Of a stretch of 64,000 nt of DNA, positions 1 through 8,345 are shown one piece after another. The stretch is from Spirochaetia bacterium (GTDB lineage Bacteria > Spirochaetota > Spirochaetia > UBA9216), in assembly GCA_963675665.1 (NCBI GenBank), contig OY776510.1, positions 4,864,001 to 4,928,000 on the forward strand, written 5' to 3'. The number at the start of each line of letters is the position of its first letter. Within the stretch, counting starts at the first letter, position 1. The notes under the pieces are model-generated. The model was not told where the DNA came from, searched no databases, and saw nothing but the letters and a program-made list of their open reading frames with translations. The translations under genes were made by a program, and so were the position numbers.

Positions 1-306
1 AATTACATCTACTTCACTCTGAATCAGGTTCTCAATTACCGATACCTGATCTGTAACATTTTTATGTGCGGAACCGACCCTGGTTATCAATTCAATATCT
101 ATTCCATGTGCCTTTGCATCTTCAACTGCCATTTCCATGAAATTTGTAGCTGTCTGATAAACACCTGTTATTGTAGGAGGAGCCCAGCCAATCTTGACAA
201 CCGGCAAACCGGACTCACTCAGCCTGGCCTCCTGCTGGCCGTTTGCGAAAGTTGCTGAAACCAGAATCAGTCCCAGAACCAACATCAGAAAAACCTTTTT
301 TCTCAC
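1..306 (-). CDS. Sugar ABC transporter substrate-binding protein (RbsB/periplasmic-binding-protein type 1), N-terminal part only; runs off the window edge
   Basis: Not in the ORF track. GTG at 306 follows GGAG; hand translation gives MRKKVFLMLVLGLILVSATFANGQQE...VVKIGWAPP...DQVSVIENLIQSEVDVI. It has a signal peptide and the RbsB-like Q..IENLI...VD.I motif, and is open to position 1. Confidence 0.8.
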   Translation of the reverse strand, partial: MRKKVFLMLVLGLILVSATFANGQQEARLSESGLPVVKIGWAPPTITGVYQTATNFMEMAVEDAKAHGIDIELITRVGSAHKNVTDQVSVIENLIQSEVDVI

Positions 307-340: not shown

Positions 341-357
341 AGCAGTAACCATGCCAA
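341..357 (-). promoter_or_regulatory. Putative sigma54 (-24/-12) promoter of the binding-protein gene
   Basis: Minus strand TTGGCATGGTTACTGCT (GG-N10-GC), about 35 nt upstream of the start codon and divergent from a sigma54 activator gene. Confidence 0.7.
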
Positions 358-583
358 AATTGCAGTAACAATTAAATTATTAAAGATCCGCCGAAAATTT
401 ACCGCTGGATCATATTTAAACAGTAAATCATTATGAAAATACCTAATTTCTATTTGACAATCTTTAAAAAGTAAAACAATAATCATAAATAACGCGATAT
501 ACATCAGCATAAACACATTACAGTTATGTAAACAGATTGTAACAGTTCTGTAAAACTGAATCAAATAAATTTGGAGAATCGTT

Positions 584-1942
584 TTGGGCCTAAATATTCT
601 AATAGTTGATGATCAAAAAAAGCATAATCAGACTCTTGCCCGCAGTCTTAAACTGAGAGGTAATGAAACATACAGCTGTGCCAACAGCGAACAGGCTTAT
701 AACGTACTTAAGAAAAACAAAATTGACTATATTCTCCTTGATATAATGCTTGATAATGAAGACGGTATTTCATTGATACCGAATTTCATAAATACGGCCC
801 CGGAATCAAAAATAATCATGATTACAGCATACGGAACAATATCATCAGCAGTTAAAGCCCTGAAACTCGGAGCTGAAGACTATATTCAAAAGCCGATTGA
901 TATCGAACATCTGGTTTGCATGCTGCAGTCAAACACTATCAGGAAATCAGGTAAAAAAAATAATTCCGGCACTATGGAAAACTGCGGCATCATAACCAAG
1001 AACAGGCAGATGCTTTCGGTCATTGAAAAAGCCAAACTATATGCATCATCAGATTTACCGGCCTTGATTATAGGAGAAAGCGGCACGGGAAAAGAACTGC
1101 TTGCGGACCTCATCCATGCCAATTCTTCATACTCCGAAAAAGCAATGCATAAAATAAATTCATCTGCATTCTCCGAATCACTTCTTGAAAGTGAACTGTT
1201 CGGACACGAGGAGGGGTCTTTTACCGGAGCGAAATCAACTCACAAGGGTATTTTTGAACGGGCAAACCACAGCAGCCTCTTTATGGACGAGATAGGAGAT
1301 ATGCCCCTTTCTCTGCAGGCAAAAATTCTCAGAACAATACAGAATCATGAAATTCTCAGACTTGGCGGGAAAGACACCATAAAAATTAATGTAAGATTTA
1401 TCGCCGCTACAAACAAGGATCTGTATACACTGGTCCATCAGAACCTGTTCAGACAGGATCTATACTACCGGCTTAACACAGGCATATTCAGACTGCCGCC
1501 CTTAAGAGAGAGAAAGGAAGATATCCCCGACCTGGTTAAATTCTTTATCGCTTCAAAGAAACAGAAATTTCATGATGCTGTCGAATTGGACGACAGTGTT
1601 ATCAACTTTTTTCTGGATTACGACTGGCCCGGAAATGTCCGGGAACTCCAGAGCGTAATATTCTATGCAGATGCAATCTGCCGTGACGGGAAAATCAGAA
1701 AAGAACACCTTCCTGAATATATCCTGTCGGAACTGAGCCCGTCAGTCTGTAACGGGTTGAGCTTTCAGGCGGAATATGATGACAGGGATGAAAAGACAGT
1801 AATCGAAAAAACACTTAAGGAAATGAACTACATCAAAAAAGATGTGGCTTTTAAACTCGGGATAAGCCGTCCGACACTTTACAGAAAGATGGAGAAATAC
1901 AATATCAACGGGCAAAAGCAAGATGAAACTTCTGTCATTTGA
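584..1942 (+). CDS. Sigma54-dependent response regulator (NtrC/AtoC family: REC-AAA+-Fis HTH)
   Basis: REC domain (IVDD, LLDIML, KP), Walker A GESGTGKE, ESELFGHEEGSFTGA, MDEIGDM, WPGNVREL, and HTH LGISRPTLYRKM. Confidence 0.95.
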   Translation: MGLNILIVDDQKKHNQTLARSLKLRGNETYSCANSEQAYNVLKKNKIDYILLDIMLDNEDGISLIPNFINTAPESKIIMITAYGTISSAVKALKLGAEDYIQKPIDIEHLVCMLQSNTIRKSGKKNNSGTMENCGIITKNRQMLSVIEKAKLYASSDLPALIIGESGTGKELLADLIHANSSYSEKAMHKINSSAFSESLLESELFGHEEGSFTGAKSTHKGIFERANHSSLFMDEIGDMPLSLQAKILRTIQNHEILRLGGKDTIKINVRFIAATNKDLYTLVHQNLFRQDLYYRLNTGIFRLPPLRERKEDIPDLVKFFIASKKQKFHDAVELDDSVINFFLDYDWPGNVRELQSVIFYADAICRDGKIRKEHLPEYILSELSPSVCNGLSFQAEYDDRDEKTVIEKTLKEMNYIKKDVAFKLGISRPTLYRKMEKYNINGQKQDETSVI

Positions 1943-3740
1943 GAATATCAGCTATTATCAGAACCATAAAGAAATATTAAATAATATATCCTTCTCTATC
2001 GGACCCGGAGATATTCAGGTTATACTTGGCGATAATAACTCAGGCCGTTCAATTCTGGCCCTGCTGTTATCAGGAAGAGCAAAACCGACATCCGGAGTAA
2101 TCAGATATAAAGGAAAACCTTATAAATCTTTTTCCATAACCGAAGCCAAGAAAAATGCAATAGAAATATGTACTACCGAGCTGAATCTTGTAGAATCCAT
2201 GAGCGTAGAAAAGAATCTGTTTATCGGAATTCAAAACCGGAAACTGCTTCAATTTTACAGCAACGCCTCATTCCATAAAAAAATAAACTCCTTTCTTGCT
2301 CATTATGATTTCAAAATCAATTCAAATCAGAAAGTAGCGGAGCTTGACATCTCGCAAAAGGCTGTAGTCAAGCTGCTGCAATGTATTTATTACAAACCCG
2401 AATTGCTTGTAATTGACGAACTGTTTTCGCTGATGTCTCACGACGACAGAAAAAAAGCGCTTCCAATCCTGAAAGAACTGAGAGAAAGCGGATGCTCCAT
2501 TTTGTATCTCACCCAGAGTATCGAAGGCATACTGGGAATTGCCGGGAAAGTGCGGATAATAAGAAAAGGTGAAATTGTATTCACTGAAGACTCCGAAAAC
2601 CTTGATGAAATTAATCTTGCTTCAATACTCTATTCCCAGGAAAGCGAAGACCAGGAGAATTCGCTATCCAACAGCGATTTTATGCAATACCTGAAATACA
2701 ACCAGGCGATATTAAGGGATTTACCGGTTAACCTCCTGGTGTTTGATCAGGATCATAAACTGAGGTTGTGCAACAAGGCGGCATCTGACTTCCTTGCAAA
2801 CGAAGAACTGAAAACAGATGTTTTCAAAATAATCAAGAACAGGGGAAACGATATCCCGATTGTGTTAACCGCGCTGGCTTCCAGAAAAGATGAAATCTTA
2901 TACAACATACCGGTCGAAGTAAATAATAAATCTTTTGTTACAAACCTTATCTTTTCGCCGGTTTTTAATAATAATATCTATATCGGCAAGATCATGATAA
3001 TTGACGACATAACACAGCAGCACAAACTGCGTGAATCTATAACACAAACCGAGAAATTTTCGTCAATCGGGCTTTTAACTTCGGGCGTTGCACATGAAAT
3101 CAACCATCCGCTGGGAATAATAGCGAATACTGTTGATTATCTCAAATCACTTAAAACAACGGATAAAATCAAATTTGAGATTGAAAGCATTGAAGATGAA
3201 GTAAAATCAATCAGTTATATCATCGGAAATCTGAAAGAATTTGCCAGTGATAATATTACCAAAACAGATTATTTTGATATTAATGATTTAATCAGAAAAG
3301 TATTACAGATAATGAGATTTTACTGCAGAGAAAACAATGCTGAAATAATTCTGGACGCTTTTCCCAGCAGCATCTTCGTAAAACTTAACCCAACCGATTT
3401 CAAGCATGTTCTGATTAATATAATAAAGAACAGTATTCAGGCCATGTCCGCATCCAAAAAAATCATTATCAAAACCGATCTGCTCTTATCCAGTACTGAA
3501 GCAAAAACAATTGTAACAATTACGGATAACGGTCCGGGAATAAGCGCCGAAGATCCTAACGATGTATTTTTACCGTTTTACTCTACAAAAAGGGAAATCG
3601 GCGAAGGTATGGGGCTGGGACTGTATCTTACATATAAAATGGTACTATCAATGAACGGCAATATAAATGTTAAGAATTTGCCGGGAGAAGGCTGCAGATT
3701 CTCAATCGAATTGCCTGTCAGCCATCCGCCCGGATATTAG
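1923..3740 (+). CDS. Sensor histidine kinase with an N-terminal degenerate sugar-ABC ATPase (NBD) domain and a PAS-like linker; no transmembrane segment
   Basis: Residues 1-~240 follow the RbsA/MglA NBD1 motif order. The C-terminus has H-box AHEINHPL, N-box VLINIIKNS, DNGPGI, FLPFYSTK and GMGLGL. Confidence 0.9.
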   Translation: MKLLSFENISYYQNHKEILNNISFSIGPGDIQVILGDNNSGRSILALLLSGRAKPTSGVIRYKGKPYKSFSITEAKKNAIEICTTELNLVESMSVEKNLFIGIQNRKLLQFYSNASFHKKINSFLAHYDFKINSNQKVAELDISQKAVVKLLQCIYYKPELLVIDELFSLMSHDDRKKALPILKELRESGCSILYLTQSIEGILGIAGKVRIIRKGEIVFTEDSENLDEINLASILYSQESEDQENSLSNSDFMQYLKYNQAILRDLPVNLLVFDQDHKLRLCNKAASDFLANEELKTDVFKIIKNRGNDIPIVLTALASRKDEILYNIPVEVNNKSFVTNLIFSPVFNNNIYIGKIMIIDDITQQHKLRESITQTEKFSSIGLLTSGVAHEINHPLGIIANTVDYLKSLKTTDKIKFEIESIEDEVKSISYIIGNLKEFASDNITKTDYFDINDLIRKVLQIMRFYCRENNAEIILDAFPSSIFVKLNPTDFKHVLINIIKNSIQAMSASKKIIIKTDLLLSSTEAKTIVTITDNGPGISAEDPNDVFLPFYSTKREIGEGMGLGLYLTYKMVLSMNGNINVKNLPGEGCRFSIELPVSHPPGY

Positions 3741-3742
3741 AA

Positions 3743-4603
3743 TCAAAATAGACTTTTTATAAAACTGCAGGCTTTTTCTGCATCCTCATCAAGATTATGC
3801 CCCGGGACCAGCTCACGGTGAAGACTTACCGATTCAGCTACCCCGCCGCCGGGGATTACAAAGGGCTCGAACACAATATAACCCTTGTATTGTATCTCTT
3901 TTATTGCTTTTATTATCTCCTCCCACGGAACATGGCCGGAGCCGGGGACTTTACGATTACTTTCTCCGAAATGGATATGACCAACCCAGTTTCCTGATGT
4001 TCTGATAGCTTCGGCAATACTGTCTTCTTCTATGTTCATATGAAAAGTGTCAAGCAGGAGTTTACAATTACTGCTTCCGACCCTTTCGCAGAATTCAACG
4101 CCCTCTTCAGCTGTGTTAATTAAAAAATGTTCAAAACGGTTGAGAACTTCCAGATTTACAGTAATATTTAAATCTTCCGCATAATTCATCAACTCTTTGA
4201 CGCTTTTAACAGATATATCAAGTATCTCCTCTTTACCTGCGCCCCTGCCTGATAAAAATCCGGGCCAGCATGAATATGTGATGCCGCCTAATCTGTCAAT
4301 ACCGCAGGCATTTAAAGCCATGTAAACTTTCCTGAAATAATCCATTCCTGCTTTTCTGATATTTTGATCAGTTGATGCAATATCATATTCCGGAGCTGTT
4401 CCGATACATGCCGACAAAGCAACGCCTGTTCTCTCTGCTTCTTCTTTCAAAAAGGCCTTTTCCTTATCAGTAAATGAGATTAAACAATCTGCATTCACTT
4501 CCAGGACATCAAATCCAAGAGTTTTAACTTTTTCCAGATATGAGAAGAAATCACATGTCCAGTCTTTTTCCCAATATGCATAATAAATACCTATTTTGTT
4601 CAT
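3743..4603 (-). CDS. dpe: Ketose 3-epimerase (D-psicose/D-tagatose 3-epimerase family)
   Basis: N-terminal GIYYAYWE; metal/catalytic motifs LEVLNRFE, LLDTFHMNIEE, GHIHFGESNR.PG.G and FEPF. Confidence 0.85.
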   Translation of the reverse strand: MNKIGIYYAYWEKDWTCDFFSYLEKVKTLGFDVLEVNADCLISFTDKEKAFLKEEAERTGVALSACIGTAPEYDIASTDQNIRKAGMDYFRKVYMALNACGIDRLGGITYSCWPGFLSGRGAGKEEILDISVKSVKELMNYAEDLNITVNLEVLNRFEHFLINTAEEGVEFCERVGSSNCKLLLDTFHMNIEEDSIAEAIRTSGNWVGHIHFGESNRKVPGSGHVPWEEIIKAIKEIQYKGYIVFEPFVIPGGGVAESVSLHRELVPGHNLDEDAEKACSFIKSLF

Positions 4604-4615
4604 TTTGCTCTCCTG

Positions 4616-5065
4616 TTAAAAATAAATAATTTTCTCCAAACTCATAATCTTTCGATCTGCAGTTTCCGTACCCTCATTAAATACAATCTGAAGTGATGCC
4701 GATTCTCCGTTCGTTGCAGCCGGATGATAATGCCAGATTCCCGGCCTGATTATGACGGAATCACCGCAAACCAGATGGAAAACCGCAATTTCCTTCAGAT
4801 CAGCTGATACCGGAAGCAATACCTCTCCGTCAAGAACCGTCATCAACTCAAAACTATCGCTGTGCTGCTCCAGTTCAGTCAACTCTCTGTTCCGCTGAAA
4901 AACCCTGAGAAACCCAACGCTTATTATCTTTTCGGAAAGGGCAATATTACCCCAGTAAACCATTTCATCCGATTCAAAAACAGGACAACTTTGTTGTGCC
5001 TGAATTATTTTTCCGAACGGACTAAAATCTCCGGCAGAGAGGTTCCTGATAATTACATCACCCAT
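4616..5065 (-). CDS. Ureidoglycolate lyase-like (AllA/cupin-fold) protein
   Basis: F.PFG.II N-terminus, LEQH..SFE and PGIWH motifs. Start re-set to the ATG at 5065, which overlaps the upstream stop. Confidence 0.65.
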   Translation of the reverse strand: MGDVIIRNLSAGDFSPFGKIIQAQQSCPVFESDEMVYWGNIALSEKIISVGFLRVFQRNRELTELEQHSDSFELMTVLDGEVLLPVSADLKEIAVFHLVCGDSVIIRPGIWHYHPAATNGESASLQIVFNEGTETADRKIMSLEKIIYF

Positions 5066-5462
5066 TGAGCCGCTCGCAGAATTCCAGTTCAACCCCGCTG
5101 GGATCTTTTATCAGAATTATTTTTACGCCCAAATTTGGAACATCTGTCACTGGAAGCGTGATTTCAAACCCGGCACTTTCTATCTTTCCCGCCAGATCGT
5201 TCAGGTTGTCCGTCCAAAATGCAGCATGACGGAATATTCCGCCGTCGTCAGCCCTGGTAGTAATATTCCTGTTGCTGCCGAAATAATCTATCAACTCCAG
5301 CCTTACGCTGCCGCCGGGAATTTCATAATAGGTAATCTCATGATCGCCCATATTGACGACTTCAATCTTATTAAAGCCCAGGATGCTCTCATAAAAATGA
5401 CAACTCTTTTTTATATCTGTGACATTAATTGTCACATGATTTAAAGTAATATTCATACTCAT
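5058..5462 (-). CDS. VOC/glyoxalase family protein
   Basis: LNHVTINVTD..KS.HFYE.ILGF, RLELI, HAAF and KDPSGVELEF. Confidence 0.9.
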   Translation of the reverse strand: MSMNITLNHVTINVTDIKKSCHFYESILGFNKIEVVNMGDHEITYYEIPGGSVRLELIDYFGSNRNITTRADDGGIFRHAAFWTDNLNDLAGKIESAGFEITLPVTDVPNLGVKIILIKDPSGVELEFCERLNG

Positions 5463-5469
5463 TCCAGCC

Positions 5470-6261
5470 TTAGATATGACGGATTACACCGGCATCGATC
5501 AGAACAGTATTACCGTTTATACCCGGATTAGCCGCAGTGTTAACAACAGAACGGGCAACCTCCTCAACATCAAGGAATCGTTGCAGAAGAGAATCCGAAT
5601 CATTTCCGGTTTTAAAGTATTCTTCCTTCTGTTCTTCAACAGAAATATTATTCTGGTTTGCAAGCGATTCCATATAAGCGGCAACGCCGTCAGTCCAGGT
5701 TGTTACCGGACAAACACTGTTCACAGTAACATTTGTGCCTTTTGTAAGTTCGGCCAGGGCCCGGCTCATTCCTATTATTGCAGCTTTTGTGGTTGAGTAA
5801 GGCACCAGATCTCCATTCGGACGCAGCCCCGCTTCGCTCGAGATATTTACAATATCGCCGCTGTTGCGTTTCAACATCTTCGGAAGAACCAGCCTGCACA
5901 ATCTCATTGCAGCCATGACGTTCATTTCCCAATACCTGTACCAGTCCTCGTCCGTACTCTCCTCAAAAGGAACAACAGGATATATTCCGAGGTTATTTAC
6001 CAGAATATCTATTCCTTTTCCGTCGTCGGCTTCATCTACCAGTCTTTTACAGTCATCTATACTGGTCAAATCAGCAACAGAGCCGGTTACACCGGAATAT
6101 TTTAACGAAAGCTCCGATACAGTTTTCTCGACTTCATCCTTAAAGCAGCTATTAATGACAACAGTTGCTTCTTCTTTTAAAAATTCTTCAGCGATCCCCT
6201 TTCCGATACCGGAAGTGGATCCCGTTACAAGAATCTTTTTGCCTTTCAGCCTTAAATCCAT
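5470..6261 (-). CDS. Short-chain dehydrogenase/reductase
   Basis: TGSTSGIG, DILVNNLG, NISS and YSTTK. Confidence 0.93.
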   Translation of the reverse strand: MDLRLKGKKILVTGSTSGIGKGIAEEFLKEEATVVINSCFKDEVEKTVSELSLKYSGVTGSVADLTSIDDCKRLVDEADDGKGIDILVNNLGIYPVVPFEESTDEDWYRYWEMNVMAAMRLCRLVLPKMLKRNSGDIVNISSEAGLRPNGDLVPYSTTKAAIIGMSRALAELTKGTNVTVNSVCPVTTWTDGVAAYMESLANQNNISVEEQKEEYFKTGNDSDSLLQRFLDVEEVARSVVNTAANPGINGNTVLIDAGVIRHI

Positions 6262-6296
6262 CTGAAATCTCCTTATAATTTACAATGCAGAAGATA

Positions 6297-6314
6297 TTGC
6301 AATATATGTGCCAA
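6297..6314 (-). promoter_or_regulatory. Sigma54 (-24/-12) promoter of the SDR-VOC-cupin-epimerase operon
   Basis: Minus strand TTGGCACATATATTGCAA is a perfect TGGCAC-N5-TTGCA consensus, 35 nt upstream of the SDR start. Confidence 0.85.
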
Positions 6315-6449
6315 TTGTTTATCCGCCAATTTTCAGCATCAATCAGGTATTTTCTGAACAATTTGATATTGTTGCTGTAAAGAAATCCTGATTTTGTTAC
6401 AAATCTGTAACTGAAATAATGTAACAGACAGGCAACAAACAGATTTATT

Positions 6450-6478
6450 TTGACATAGCCAAATTCGTATTGTATACT
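6450..6478 (+). promoter_or_regulatory. Sigma70-type promoter of the AOR gene
   Basis: TTGACA-N17-TATACT. Confidence 0.7.
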
Positions 6479-6515
6479 TTGTAAAATATATGTTATAAGG
6501 ATTATGGAGACTAAC

Positions 6516-8345
6516 ATGAAAACAAAAGGATATATGGGCAAGATCGCCAGGGTTGATCTGTCACGAAAAAAAATCGAGATTATTGAACTTGATGATGCGT
6601 TCGCACGTAAATATATTGGGGGCTCCGGTTTCGGAGCAAAATTTCTTTATGATGAAACAGGGCCGGAAACCGATCCTCTCGGACCGGACAATCTGCTAAT
6701 CTTTGCAACAGGCCCGGTAACCGGAACAAAAGCATTTAATTCGGACAGATTCGAGGTAATTACAAAATCGCCCAAATCAGGAATGTACGGCGAAGCAAAC
6801 TGCGGAGGCAGATGGGGCAGCAGATTTAAAAAGTGCGGATTTGACGCCCTTGTGATTAAAGGCTGCTCGGATAAACCTGTATACCTGGATATTTCCGACG
6901 GAGAAATCAGCATAAACGATGCCTCGGATCTGTGGGGACTGGACACCTTTAAAACACATTCCAATCTCAAGGAAAAAAACGGAGCTAAATCGGAAGTTGC
7001 ATGTATCGGTCCATCCGGAGAAATGATGATGCCCATTGCGGCAATAATAGCAGACGGACGCCACGGGAGGGCAGCCGGTCGTTCGGGAGTAGGCGCCGTA
7101 ATGGGATCCAAGAAGCTAAAAGCTGTCGTTGTAAACGGAACCCGGGAAATAGAAACAGCTGATGTCGACCTTATCACATCAACAAATAAAGCAGTTCTTC
7201 CGACAATGAGGACTGATGCAAAAGCTTTAACAGAAGCAGGCACAGCCTGCTCGCTTGATCTTTTCGAAGAAATCGGAAATCTGCCGATCAAAAACTGGTA
7301 CCAGGGCAACTGGCAGCCGGCGGTTGATAATCTCACCGGCTATGCGTCGATAGCAAAAACCAAAGTAAAAGACTACGGCTGCGGAAACTGCCCTATTCGC
7401 TGCGGCAAGGTTACCCTGACAAAGGGCGGCGAATACGACGGGGTTGATGTTGCAGCGCCCGAGTATGAAACCGTAGCCCTGATGGGGTCAAACTGCCTGA
7501 TAGATGATTATGATACAATCGTTAAGCAGAACGAAATCTGCAATGCATACGGTGTGGACACAATTGCGGCGGGAAACATCATTGCCTTTGCAATGGAAGC
7601 ATACGAACGCGGGATACTGACCGATGAACATACCGGAGGTATGGATCTGAGCTTCGGCAATGTCGATTCAGCAAAAAAACTTCTTGAAACAGTAGTAAAA
7701 AAGGAAGGCTTTCTCGGAGATCTTTTTAAAACGGGAATCAGGGATGCCGCAAAAAAACTGGGTAAAAACTCTGAAGAATTTGCGTTAAACGTCAAGAACC
7801 AGGAAATACCGGCACATGACCCCCGCGCCAATTTTTCACTGGCAATAAACTATGCGACCTCAAACCGCGGGGCCTGCCACCTGACATTCAGCCAGGACTA
7901 TGAAGAGGGAAATGTTCCCAAACTGGGCGCGCCAGATCAAAAGGGCAGATTCTCGCCAGACAAAGCTGTTTATTCCGCCAGAATGCAGGACTGGGCAACA
8001 ATGTTTGATTCTCTGTGTTTATGCAAATTCGCACGTTACGGAGGGGTTATGATCGACGAATGCCTGAATTACCTGAACGGATCAACCGGCTGGGATTTTA
8101 CTGCCGAGGAATTCATTCAGGCTGGCGAAAGGCTTTTTAATCTAAAACGCATGTATAATGTCCGGCACGGGGCATCCAGAAAGGACGATCAGCTTCCGCT
8201 TCGGATGCAGACGCACAGGCGCGGAGGAGGAACAAATGAACTTCCGCCGTTTAACATCATGCTTAACGAGTATTACCAGGCCAGGGGCTGGGACGACATG
8301 GGAATACCGCATGAAGAAAAACTGAAAGAGCTCCAACTGAAATAA
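6516..8345 (+). CDS. aor: Aldehyde:ferredoxin oxidoreductase family protein (W/Mo-pterin, 4Fe-4S)
   Basis: GYMGKIARVDLS, GPETDPLGPDN, RAAGRSGVGAVMGSKKLKA, C..CPI.C, PEYET, HDPR, SNRGACH and YY.ARGWD. Start at the ATG at 6516, after GGAG. Confidence 0.93.
   Translation: MKTKGYMGKIARVDLSRKKIEIIELDDAFARKYIGGSGFGAKFLYDETGPETDPLGPDNLLIFATGPVTGTKAFNSDRFEVITKSPKSGMYGEANCGGRWGSRFKKCGFDALVIKGCSDKPVYLDISDGEISINDASDLWGLDTFKTHSNLKEKNGAKSEVACIGPSGEMMMPIAAIIADGRHGRAAGRSGVGAVMGSKKLKAVVVNGTREIETADVDLITSTNKAVLPTMRTDAKALTEAGTACSLDLFEEIGNLPIKNWYQGNWQPAVDNLTGYASIAKTKVKDYGCGNCPIRCGKVTLTKGGEYDGVDVAAPEYETVALMGSNCLIDDYDTIVKQNEICNAYGVDTIAAGNIIAFAMEAYERGILTDEHTGGMDLSFGNVDSAKKLLETVVKKEGFLGDLFKTGIRDAAKKLGKNSEEFALNVKNQEIPAHDPRANFSLAINYATSNRGACHLTFSQDYEEGNVPKLGAPDQKGRFSPDKAVYSARMQDWATMFDSLCLCKFARYGGVMIDECLNYLNGSTGWDFTAEEFIQAGERLFNLKRMYNVRHGASRKDDQLPLRMQTHRRGGGTNELPPFNIMLNEYYQARGWDDMGIPHEEKLKELQLK

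Follow-up and report, generated by a model that had tools for sequence, protein, structure and literature searches.

How does a histidine kinase come to carry the ATPase domain of a sugar transporter, and what might it sense with it? The question is raised by a window of 64,000 nucleotides (nt), the whole stretch of DNA analysed here, from a Spirochaetia bacterium (assembly GCA_963675665.1, contig OY776510.1, positions 4,864,001 to 4,928,000 of the forward strand). An open reading frame (ORF) at 1923-3740 on the plus strand of this window encodes a product of 605 amino acids (aa) in which an ATP-binding cassette (ABC) nucleotide-binding domain (NBD) is followed by a PAS domain and a histidine kinase core. 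A first, sequence-only reading of the locus had proposed that the NBD is dead, that the kinase docks through it on the permease of the neighbouring sugar transporter and reads flux there, and that it signals to the overlapping sigma54 activator. We find that the fusion is conserved and accompanies CUT2-type sugar transporters and sigma54 regulators, and our leading reading, held tentatively, is that the kinase NBD docks on the permease in place of the transporter's own tandem ATPase.

Architecture of the kinase

Pfam places ABC_tran at residues 19-167 (E 6.6e-17; 62.8 bits against a cut-off of 25), HisKA at 384-442 (29.6 against 26.9) and HATPase_c at 490-600 (73.3 against 26.4). With the NCBIfam models, residues 1-250 align with the first half of the CUT2 ATPases YtfR, AlsA, XylG, AraG, MglA and RbsA (E 1e-32 to 3e-28) and residues 253-601 with AtoS, all of these scores falling far short of the equivalog cut-offs. 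An AlphaFold2 model made from a 136-sequence family alignment (mean predicted local distance difference test, pLDDT, 88.3; predicted template modelling score 0.59) has its NBD at 1-240 (pLDDT 95-98) and, after a segment predicted as disordered (244-250), folds residues 249-362 as PAS, 364-441 as a long DHp hairpin and 449-598 as the catalytic domain; the PAS assignment is also backed by a PAS_4 match in the family relative P0180. The three-part architecture first read from the letters is therefore borne out by Pfam, NCBIfam and the structural model. The absence of a transmembrane segment holds as well, the maximum Kyte-Doolittle mean over 19 residues being 1.26.

The protein is a HisKA-class sensor histidine kinase with an intact core. 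All the defining boxes are present, namely the DHp His and the N, G1, F and G2 boxes; H391, N503, D535, G537, G539, G564 and G566 are invariant in the 136-sequence alignment, and the phospho-acceptor His is found in 140 of 140 family members. Across the family the linker between NBD and PAS runs to 9-17 residues (median 14) and is variable in sequence. A Foldseek search with the model returned the PAS-kinases YF1 (4gcz) and ThkA (3a0r) together with the importer NBDs MetN (3tuz, 6cvl) and PH0203 (2it1), and the model suggests a MalK/MetN-like topology with the kinase as the C-terminal dimer. The public annotation of one family member reads 'histidine kinase' only.

Extent of the family and its gene neighbourhoods

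A profile built from ten members was run against 1.84 billion cluster representatives at the 50%-identity level, and the best 150 matches were examined: all have E <1e-112, and 130 of them are 580-660 aa long and match end-to-end, so that the family has at least 130 full-length relatives at that cluster level. A search that scored only the 8000 candidates sharing most words returned three fused relatives and missed the genome's own paralogues, and its low count is not evidence of rarity. The genome itself, a single 5.15-Mb contig, holds eight full-length paralogues (28-34% identity). Among species genomes, full-length copies occur in Moduliflexota/KSB3 (Moduliflexus, Vecturithrix), in many Spirochaetota and in one metagenome-assembled genome labelled Planctomycetota. 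Thirty relatives gave end-to-end copies in four of the five from the same genus, three of the five others from the same family and six of the 20 from other families of the class. A 62-member cluster in the ESM Atlas has the same three domains. A one-off fusion or an assembly error, either of which would have refuted the sequence-only reading, is ruled out by the paralogues, the foreign loci, the profile matches and the genomes of relatives.

The company that the kinase gene keeps is equally constant. In the genome's own eight loci a sigma54 regulator gene overlaps or abuts it upstream every time, and a CUT2 ATPase and permease adjoin it in seven, six of them divergent and one on the same strand. 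Elsewhere the regulator lies upstream in 16 of 18 loci, one of the others being at a contig edge and one unresolved by the ORF filter, and the CUT2 ATPase and permease are present in 13. In four of the five foreign loci without the pair the contig is 4.5-10 kb long or breaks off at the kinase; in the fifth (L030), the regulator and kinase are flanked by nothing more of the transporter than a binding-protein fragment. The linkage of homologues to sugar ABC operons, on which the sequence-only reading depended, is therefore found in 7/8 own and 13/18 foreign loci, and because this gene order is conserved the signalling from kinase to regulator that it had proposed appears well supported.

Several of these loci have features of their own. 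The eighth own paralogue, HK6 (L014), faces an operon of two Zn-dehydrogenases, a glycyl-radical enzyme and its activase. PFL-like glycyl-radical enzymes with activases adjoin two of the own NBD-kinase loci, at L014:11416-16915 (HK6) and L015:1789-8779 (HK7), in one case within the divergent target operon with the two Zn-dehydrogenases and in the other after the CUT2 transporter. A Spirochaetota metagenome-assembled genome (L084:3941-10791) has two regulator/NBD-kinase pairs back to back, each facing its own CUT2 operon, and the Planctomycetota-labelled one (L026:423-7045) has the order binding protein, permease, ATPase, permease, binding protein, which may encode a heterodimeric permease with two binding proteins. 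The relative P0182 (851 aa) carries an NBD and a first HisKA, then a second HisKA and HATPase_c, and may be a duplication or a chimera. Further leads come from the ESM Atlas (scores 0.82-0.84): ABC_tran-GAF_2-HisKA clusters of about 850 and 826 aa, with 166 and 64 members mainly from Actinomycetota, might be independent NBD-kinase fusions, and a 515-aa ABC_tran-HisKA cluster is found in Spirochaetota.

The host genome shows a marked CUT2 expansion, with 71 tandem ATPases, 94 permeases, about 80 binding proteins and 22 sigma54 response regulators in its 5.15 Mb, and the NBD-kinase accompanies only eight of these systems. One CUT2 ATPase, at C1:4760594-4762097, is broken into two frames, an N-terminal one of 173 aa and one of 374 aa with NBD2 motifs, and is probably a frameshifted pseudogene.

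Origin of the NBD and its place in the kinase

A profile of the kinase NBDs scores a mean of 174 bits against the first NBD (NBD1) of the genome's CUT2 ATPases and 81 against the second (NBD2). In a FastTree (LG) phylogeny rooted on the NBD2 clade (71/71 sequences, support 1.0), 29 kinase NBDs fall together as a single group within those of NBD1. The kinase NBD evidently descends from NBD1 of the tandem CUT2 (RbsA/MglA-type) ATPases, and a single origin is likely but not secure, the node of the group having a support of 0.17. An origin from NBD2 had been suggested by the Arg in Walker A of this copy, which resembles the NBD2 form GxxGxGR[TS]; it is ruled out by the profile scores, by the tree and by the uniqueness of that Arg.

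The nearest non-fused relatives of the PAS-kinase half in related genomes are proteins of about 700 aa with an N-terminal region of about 280 aa, a HAMP domain and PAS-HisKA-HATPase, a layout typical of membrane sensors. Because these closest relatives are HAMP-PAS kinases of that size, the NBD occupies the input slot, having replaced their membrane/periplasmic/HAMP block.

State of the NBD motifs

Motif positions in the kinase NBD were fixed by alignment, and every motif quoted in the sequence-only reading is present in the translation. In this copy Arg42 stands in Walker A (GDNNSGRS) where the catalytic Lys is expected, the Q-loop is TTE (residues 84-86) with Thr85 for Gln, the signature is LDISQ (141-145) and not LSGGQ, the D-loop is FSLM (168-171) and the H-switch TQ (197-198) with Gln198 for His; Walker B, LVIDE, follows the hhhhDE pattern. 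The Walker A Lys is kept by 134 of the 140 family members and replaced by Arg in this copy alone, and the set Arg/Thr/Asp/Glu/Gln is likewise unique to it. The Q-loop Gln is kept in 107/140, the Walker B Asp in 135 and Glu in 124, and the H-switch His in 90, while all five residues are present together in 72. The description 'dead', on these alignments, fits this paralogue and not the family. No orthologue of this paralogue was found in five related genomes, the best identity being 34%.

The signature and D-loop are degenerate in all family members (consensus LslSek and iLeKL). The weakness of the signature is largely inherited, since CUT2 NBD1 already reads LSvAqQQ at this place (Table 1). 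Among the 54 positions conserved at 75% or more in NBD1, 32 persist in the kinase NBDs, including Walker A, the Q-loop Gln, the TVAEN segment after the Q-loop, Walker B and the H-switch; among the 22 that are lost are QQ of the signature and the Pro-Thr that follows Walker B. The kinase NBD therefore retains the 'Walker side' of NBD1 and has lost, in the signature, D-loop and Pro-Thr, elements that face the partner NBD. Because Walker A and B, Q-loop and H-switch are kept, the NBD of most family members probably still binds ATP, and because signature and D-loop are lost, two copies of the kinase NBD would not form a canonical hydrolytic sandwich.

Table 1. Consensus motifs of the two CUT2 NBDs and of the kinase NBD.
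Domain	Walker A	Q-loop	Signature	After Walker B	H-switch
NBD1	GENGAGKST	Q	LSvAqQQ	DEPT	SH
NBD2	GLvGaGRTE	E	LSGGNQQK	DEPTRGIDVGAK	SS
Kinase NBD	GEHGAGKS	Q	LslSek	LDEiLeKL	TH

Possible docking on the permease

While the facts at the level of the family are solid, the mechanism is one that we infer. We propose that each subunit of a kinase dimer would offer its NBD1-like domain to one of the identical coupling loops of a homodimeric permease, so replacing the tandem ATPase; the permease is taken as a homodimer because there is a single permease gene, and it keeps the cytoplasmic loop GRxxYAxGGNxxAAxxSGI. In the resulting receptor complex, binding protein, permease and kinase would come together, the latter two as dimers. 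When the binding protein docks loaded with sugar, the spacing or closure of the two NBD-like domains would shift, the short tethers would relay this shift to the PAS/DHp dimer and turn autophosphorylation on, and the phosphorylated regulator would switch on the divergent promoter, giving positive feedback. In this copy, given its substitutions in Walker A (Arg), Q-loop (Thr) and H-switch (Gln), the handling of nucleotide would be weakened further and the NBD would act mainly as a docking and lever module.

The complex predicted from two permease chains and the NBD (residues 1-245) scored 0.57 (0.59, 0.56 and 0.57 in three runs) against 0.01 for the best control, with contacts agreeing by at least 95% across the runs and a partner pLDDT of at least 77. 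When the tool was calibrated, 116 of 157 solved complexes reached its mark, as did 2 of 215 mismatched pairs; values of 0.60 or less account for 18 of the 157 solved complexes and for both of the mismatches that pass. Modelling of this pair, as the sequence-only reading had advised, was rated 'weak support' by the tool, with no interface reported. Docking of an NBD on a permease is a textbook interaction, and for this reason the pass may reflect family likeness only. No CUT2 permease was found by sequence in our copy of the PDB.

A number of observations weigh against docking. The score itself lies in a band described for the tool as 'more often wrong than right unless likely beforehand'. The transporter encodes its own complete tandem ATPase, and the kinase would have to compete with it for the same sites; since the tandem ATPase fills both, docking alongside it for a simultaneous reading of flux is unlikely, and the 'flux sensor' of the sequence-only reading is doubtful. 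Co-evolution was assessed by correlating distance matrices over 15 loci, a second value being calculated without one tight clade. Distances in the kinase domains follow those in the regulator (rho 0.62-0.75), and the three transporter components correlate among themselves (0.44-0.71), but the NBD follows the permease (0.41/0.28) no better than the kinase core does (0.37/0.33). The transporters adjacent to kinases are not clustered in trees of the 71 ATPases and 94 permeases, requiring 10 parsimony changes for 10 ATPases and 12 for 12 permeases, as in shuffles; the kinase module has therefore been re-paired with unrelated transporters, and how docking could be specific among the 94 permeases of one cell is unexplained. 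The NBD-PAS linker, predicted to be disordered and unconserved in sequence, is a poor fit to rigid mechanical coupling, HK6 has no ABC genes within 18 kb, and the PAS domain could itself sense a sugar or metabolite.

That last point leads to another explanation, which we think less likely. The kinase would be a soluble sensor whose PAS domain binds the imported sugar or a catabolite, the NBD being a nucleotide-binding accessory (an energy-charge gate or an ATP-dependent dimerization switch) that never touches the transporter, and the CUT2 linkage would exist merely because those operons are the regulon. The confident PAS fold in the model, the flexible linker, the HK6 locus with no transporter nearby, the failure to see NBD-specific co-evolution with the permease or a clade of adjoining transporters, and ThkA, a soluble PAS kinase, as the nearest solved relative of the C-terminal half would all suit this, as would the retention of Walker A and B almost throughout the family and of all five Walker-side catalytic residues in about half of it. 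It leaves unexplained, however, why a copy of CUT2 NBD1 specifically was taken, with Q-loop and TVAEN kept, and the motifs that were lost, signature and D-loop, are those that an ATP-driven dimerization switch needs. In this paralogue, moreover, the kinase core remains intact although Walker A is without its Lys, the Q-loop without its Gln and the H-switch without its His. Nor does the PAS domain diverge more among the paralogues than the NBD does (mean identities 0.29 and 0.30, respectively).

Another reading, again one of contact with the transporter, has the NBD1-like domain face an NBD of the ATPase, mimic NBD1 opposite NBD2 and report or modulate the ATPase cycle; this would be true flux sensing. 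An intact Walker side with a degenerate signature side does complement NBD2, with its LSGGNQQK signature and degenerate GxxGxGR[TS] Walker A, and retention of the catalytic Glu (124/140) and H-switch His (90/140) is sensible only if hydrolysis sometimes occurs. We nevertheless consider it very unlikely: NBD2 is covalently joined to its own NBD1 in all 71 ATPases, no NBD2-only gene was found in the genome, where the sole short match is the split ATPase far from the kinase loci, the D-loop that forms part of the NBD-NBD interface is lost, and the NBD-ATPase distance correlation is the weakest measured (0.28 and 0.09). That the NBD is a structural relic, a folded cap or a scaffold for solubility or dimerization that carries no signal on a kinase that is constitutive or controlled by a partner, as NtrB is by PII, is likewise improbable, for although three catalytic residues are lost from this paralogue's NBD, constraint cannot be gauged with no orthologue above 34% identity in the five related genomes, and soluble NtrB-type kinases do take their input from partner proteins, the NBD is full-length in at least 130 divergent cluster representatives, keeps about 30 NBD1-type positions with nucleotide-binding residues among them, is modelled very confidently, sits on a linker held to 9-17 residues and replaces the entire input module of related membrane kinases.

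Relation to known systems

Only a few bacterial systems are known to tie gene expression to the state of a transporter, namely Bce modules, MalK-MalT, Pst-PhoU-PhoR and the permease-kinase fusions of which CbrA is one. If docking on the permease is right, an ABC NBD as the input of a histidine kinase would be a new coupling route. The wider proposition, that a membrane-free dimeric kinase replaces the ATPase on the permease dimer of an ABC importer and makes of binding protein and permease a transmembrane sugar receptor, or 'transceptor', family-wide in Spirochaetota and Moduliflexota and maybe arisen again with GAF in Actinomycetota, seems to us possible but less likely than not.

The kinase is not a CUT2 ATPase, not an AtoS equivalog and not a Bce-type intramembrane kinase. 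Its N-terminal 250 residues align with NBD1 of RbsA, MglA, XylG, AraG, YtfR and AlsA, but those proteins are tandem NBD1-NBD2 ATPases of about 500 aa, whereas the kinase has a single NBD, scores 99-113 bits against their cut-offs of 689-850 and belongs to a family in which signature, D-loop and the Pro-Thr that follows Walker B are lost throughout. The C-terminal 350 residues belong with the PAS-HisKA-HATPase class of ThkA (TM1359), AtoS, NtrB and ZraS, which likewise work with sigma54 regulators (ThkA 3a0r, 5e-28 over 258-598; ZraS 9jfj, 4e-21); the equivalog cut-offs are not reached, at 189.7 bits against 646 for AtoS (NF008468) and 104.1 against 479 for ZraS, and none of these kinases has an ABC domain.

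MalK and MetN resemble the model in having an importer NBD followed by a C-terminal dimerizing domain, and in MalK-MalT the importer NBD is a platform that passes the state of the transporter to gene regulation. There, however, the NBD is a working ATPase and the regulator a separate, sequestered protein, whereas here a second, non-transporting copy of the NBD is covalently fused to the kinase. The Bce-type modules of Firmicutes also have a kinase with no extracellular sensor of its own and an ABC transporter encoded beside it, and there the kinase depends on the transporter; complex formation and need-based activation are among the properties described for BceRS-BceAB (PMC4513084, PMC10314905). 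BceS is an intramembrane-sensing kinase whose transmembrane helices contact the permease BceB, the NBD BceA being separate, whereas the present kinase has no membrane segment and carries the NBD itself; the Bce transporter is a peptide-antibiotic resistance pump and its regulator of OmpR type, in contrast to the binding-protein-dependent sugar importer and sigma54-type regulator here. In CbrA and CrbS a transporter-derived module is again fused to a histidine kinase as its input, CrbS being presented as a fusion of an SLC5 transporter domain and a kinase (PMC5715377). What is fused in those proteins is the membrane permease of a secondary transporter, unlike the soluble ATPase domain of a primary ABC transporter on a cytoplasmic kinase.

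Full-text literature searches, with most subscription journals outside their coverage, found no description of an ABC-NBD/histidine-kinase fusion. The report on the KSB3 genomes mentions many sensory genes, and in its text, supplementary tables aside, 'histidine kinase' and 'ABC' have 0 occurrences (PMC4312070). In annotation the family is labelled merely 'histidine kinase', or could be mistaken for transporter ATPases. The system is a tractable one, with a soluble kinase, a compact cassette (regulator, kinase, divergent promoter and three transporter genes) and eight paralogues in one genome, and the range within the family from fully 'Walker-competent' to strongly degenerate NBDs allows signalling from a permease through a non-hydrolysing NBD to be probed. 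It also hints at how an organism with 71 CUT2 systems might keep induction specific.

Regulator, target operon and promoter

The coordinates of the locus are collected in Table 2. The regulator gene upstream encodes a protein with Response_reg (6e-25), Sigma54_activat (1.9e-61) and HTH_8 (6.9e-10) domains in Pfam; its best NCBIfam match, AtoC, scores 354.9 bits where the cut-off is 714, and the regulator is therefore not an AtoC equivalog. The gene overlaps the start of the kinase gene by 20 nt, in agreement with the overlap seen in the sequence-only reading, and the kinase gene is translationally coupled to it. On the opposite strand the frame of the binding protein is open from 564, but translation probably begins at the GTG at 306, which is served by an AAGGAG ribosome-binding site and gives a signal-peptide-like N-terminus; this agrees with the span first assigned to the gene. 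The CUT2 permease and ATPase that were expected beyond position 1 are both there: past the left end of the window the divergent operon continues with a tandem ATPase of 497 aa and one BPD_transp_2 permease of 340 aa, followed by two Fe-alcohol dehydrogenases, a Zn-alcohol dehydrogenase and a split transketolase.

Table 2. Features of the kinase locus, numbered from the first letter of the window.
Feature	Position	Strand	Details
ABC NBD, CUT2 NBD1 type	1923..2642	+	residues 1-240; Pfam, NCBIfam, profile, tree, AlphaFold2
Walker A GDNNSGRS	2028-2051	+	residues 36-43
Walker B LVIDE	2403-2420	+	residues 162-166
Acidic/polar linker, predicted disordered	2643..2678	+	residues 241-252; pLDDT <50 at 244-250
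PAS domain after conserved FYxLLKYNEAIL..LP cap helix	2679..3017	+	residues 253-365; AlphaFold2 fold, conserved junction
DHp (HisKA), HATPase_c and stop codon	3018..3740	+	residues 366-605; N, G1, F and G2 boxes intact
Phospho-acceptor His391	3093-3095	+	within DHp (HisKA)
Sigma54 response regulator: receiver, sigma54 AAA+ activator, Fis-type helix-turn-helix (NtrC/AtoC class)	584..1942	+	452 aa; Pfam
Sugar-binding protein gene, 5' end (Peripla_BP_4)	1..306	-	1.6e-45 on full ORF; first gene of divergent CUT2 operon
Sigma54 -24/-12-like promoter TGGCATGGTTACTGCT	341..356	-	TGGCAT-N5-CTGCT; 35 nt upstream of GTG at 306
CTGT..ACA-type repeat run, candidate activator sites	512..550	.	about 160-190 nt upstream of promoter; read from sequence

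We infer from gene order and promoter sites that each kinase would phosphorylate the adjacent regulator, which would then activate the divergent operon. Sigma54-type sites with at least nine of the 11 consensus positions occur in the divergent intergenic regions of five paralogous loci, all aimed at the transporter or catabolic operon; this amounts to five such sites in 9.8 kb of intergenic DNA, where the genome total of 147 in 5.15 Mb would lead one to expect about 0.3. Two further loci have rightly placed sites matching 8/11, one of them the present promoter, which is weaker than the sites of the five paralogous loci. The only inverted repeat in the intergenic region is one weak palindrome at 390-405. 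The genome contains rpoN; this single match to the sigma54 DNA-binding domain (C1:914059-914541) is flagged with one TGA inside the matched frame.

Neighbouring genes

Downstream of the kinase gene and convergent with it, the minus strand at 3743-6261 encodes a xylose-isomerase-like TIM barrel, a cupin, a glyoxalase and a short-chain dehydrogenase, and a gene for a tungsten-type aldehyde:ferredoxin oxidoreductase lies at 6504-8345 on the plus strand. Together these genes (3743-8345) are consistent with anaerobic sugar or aldehyde metabolism.

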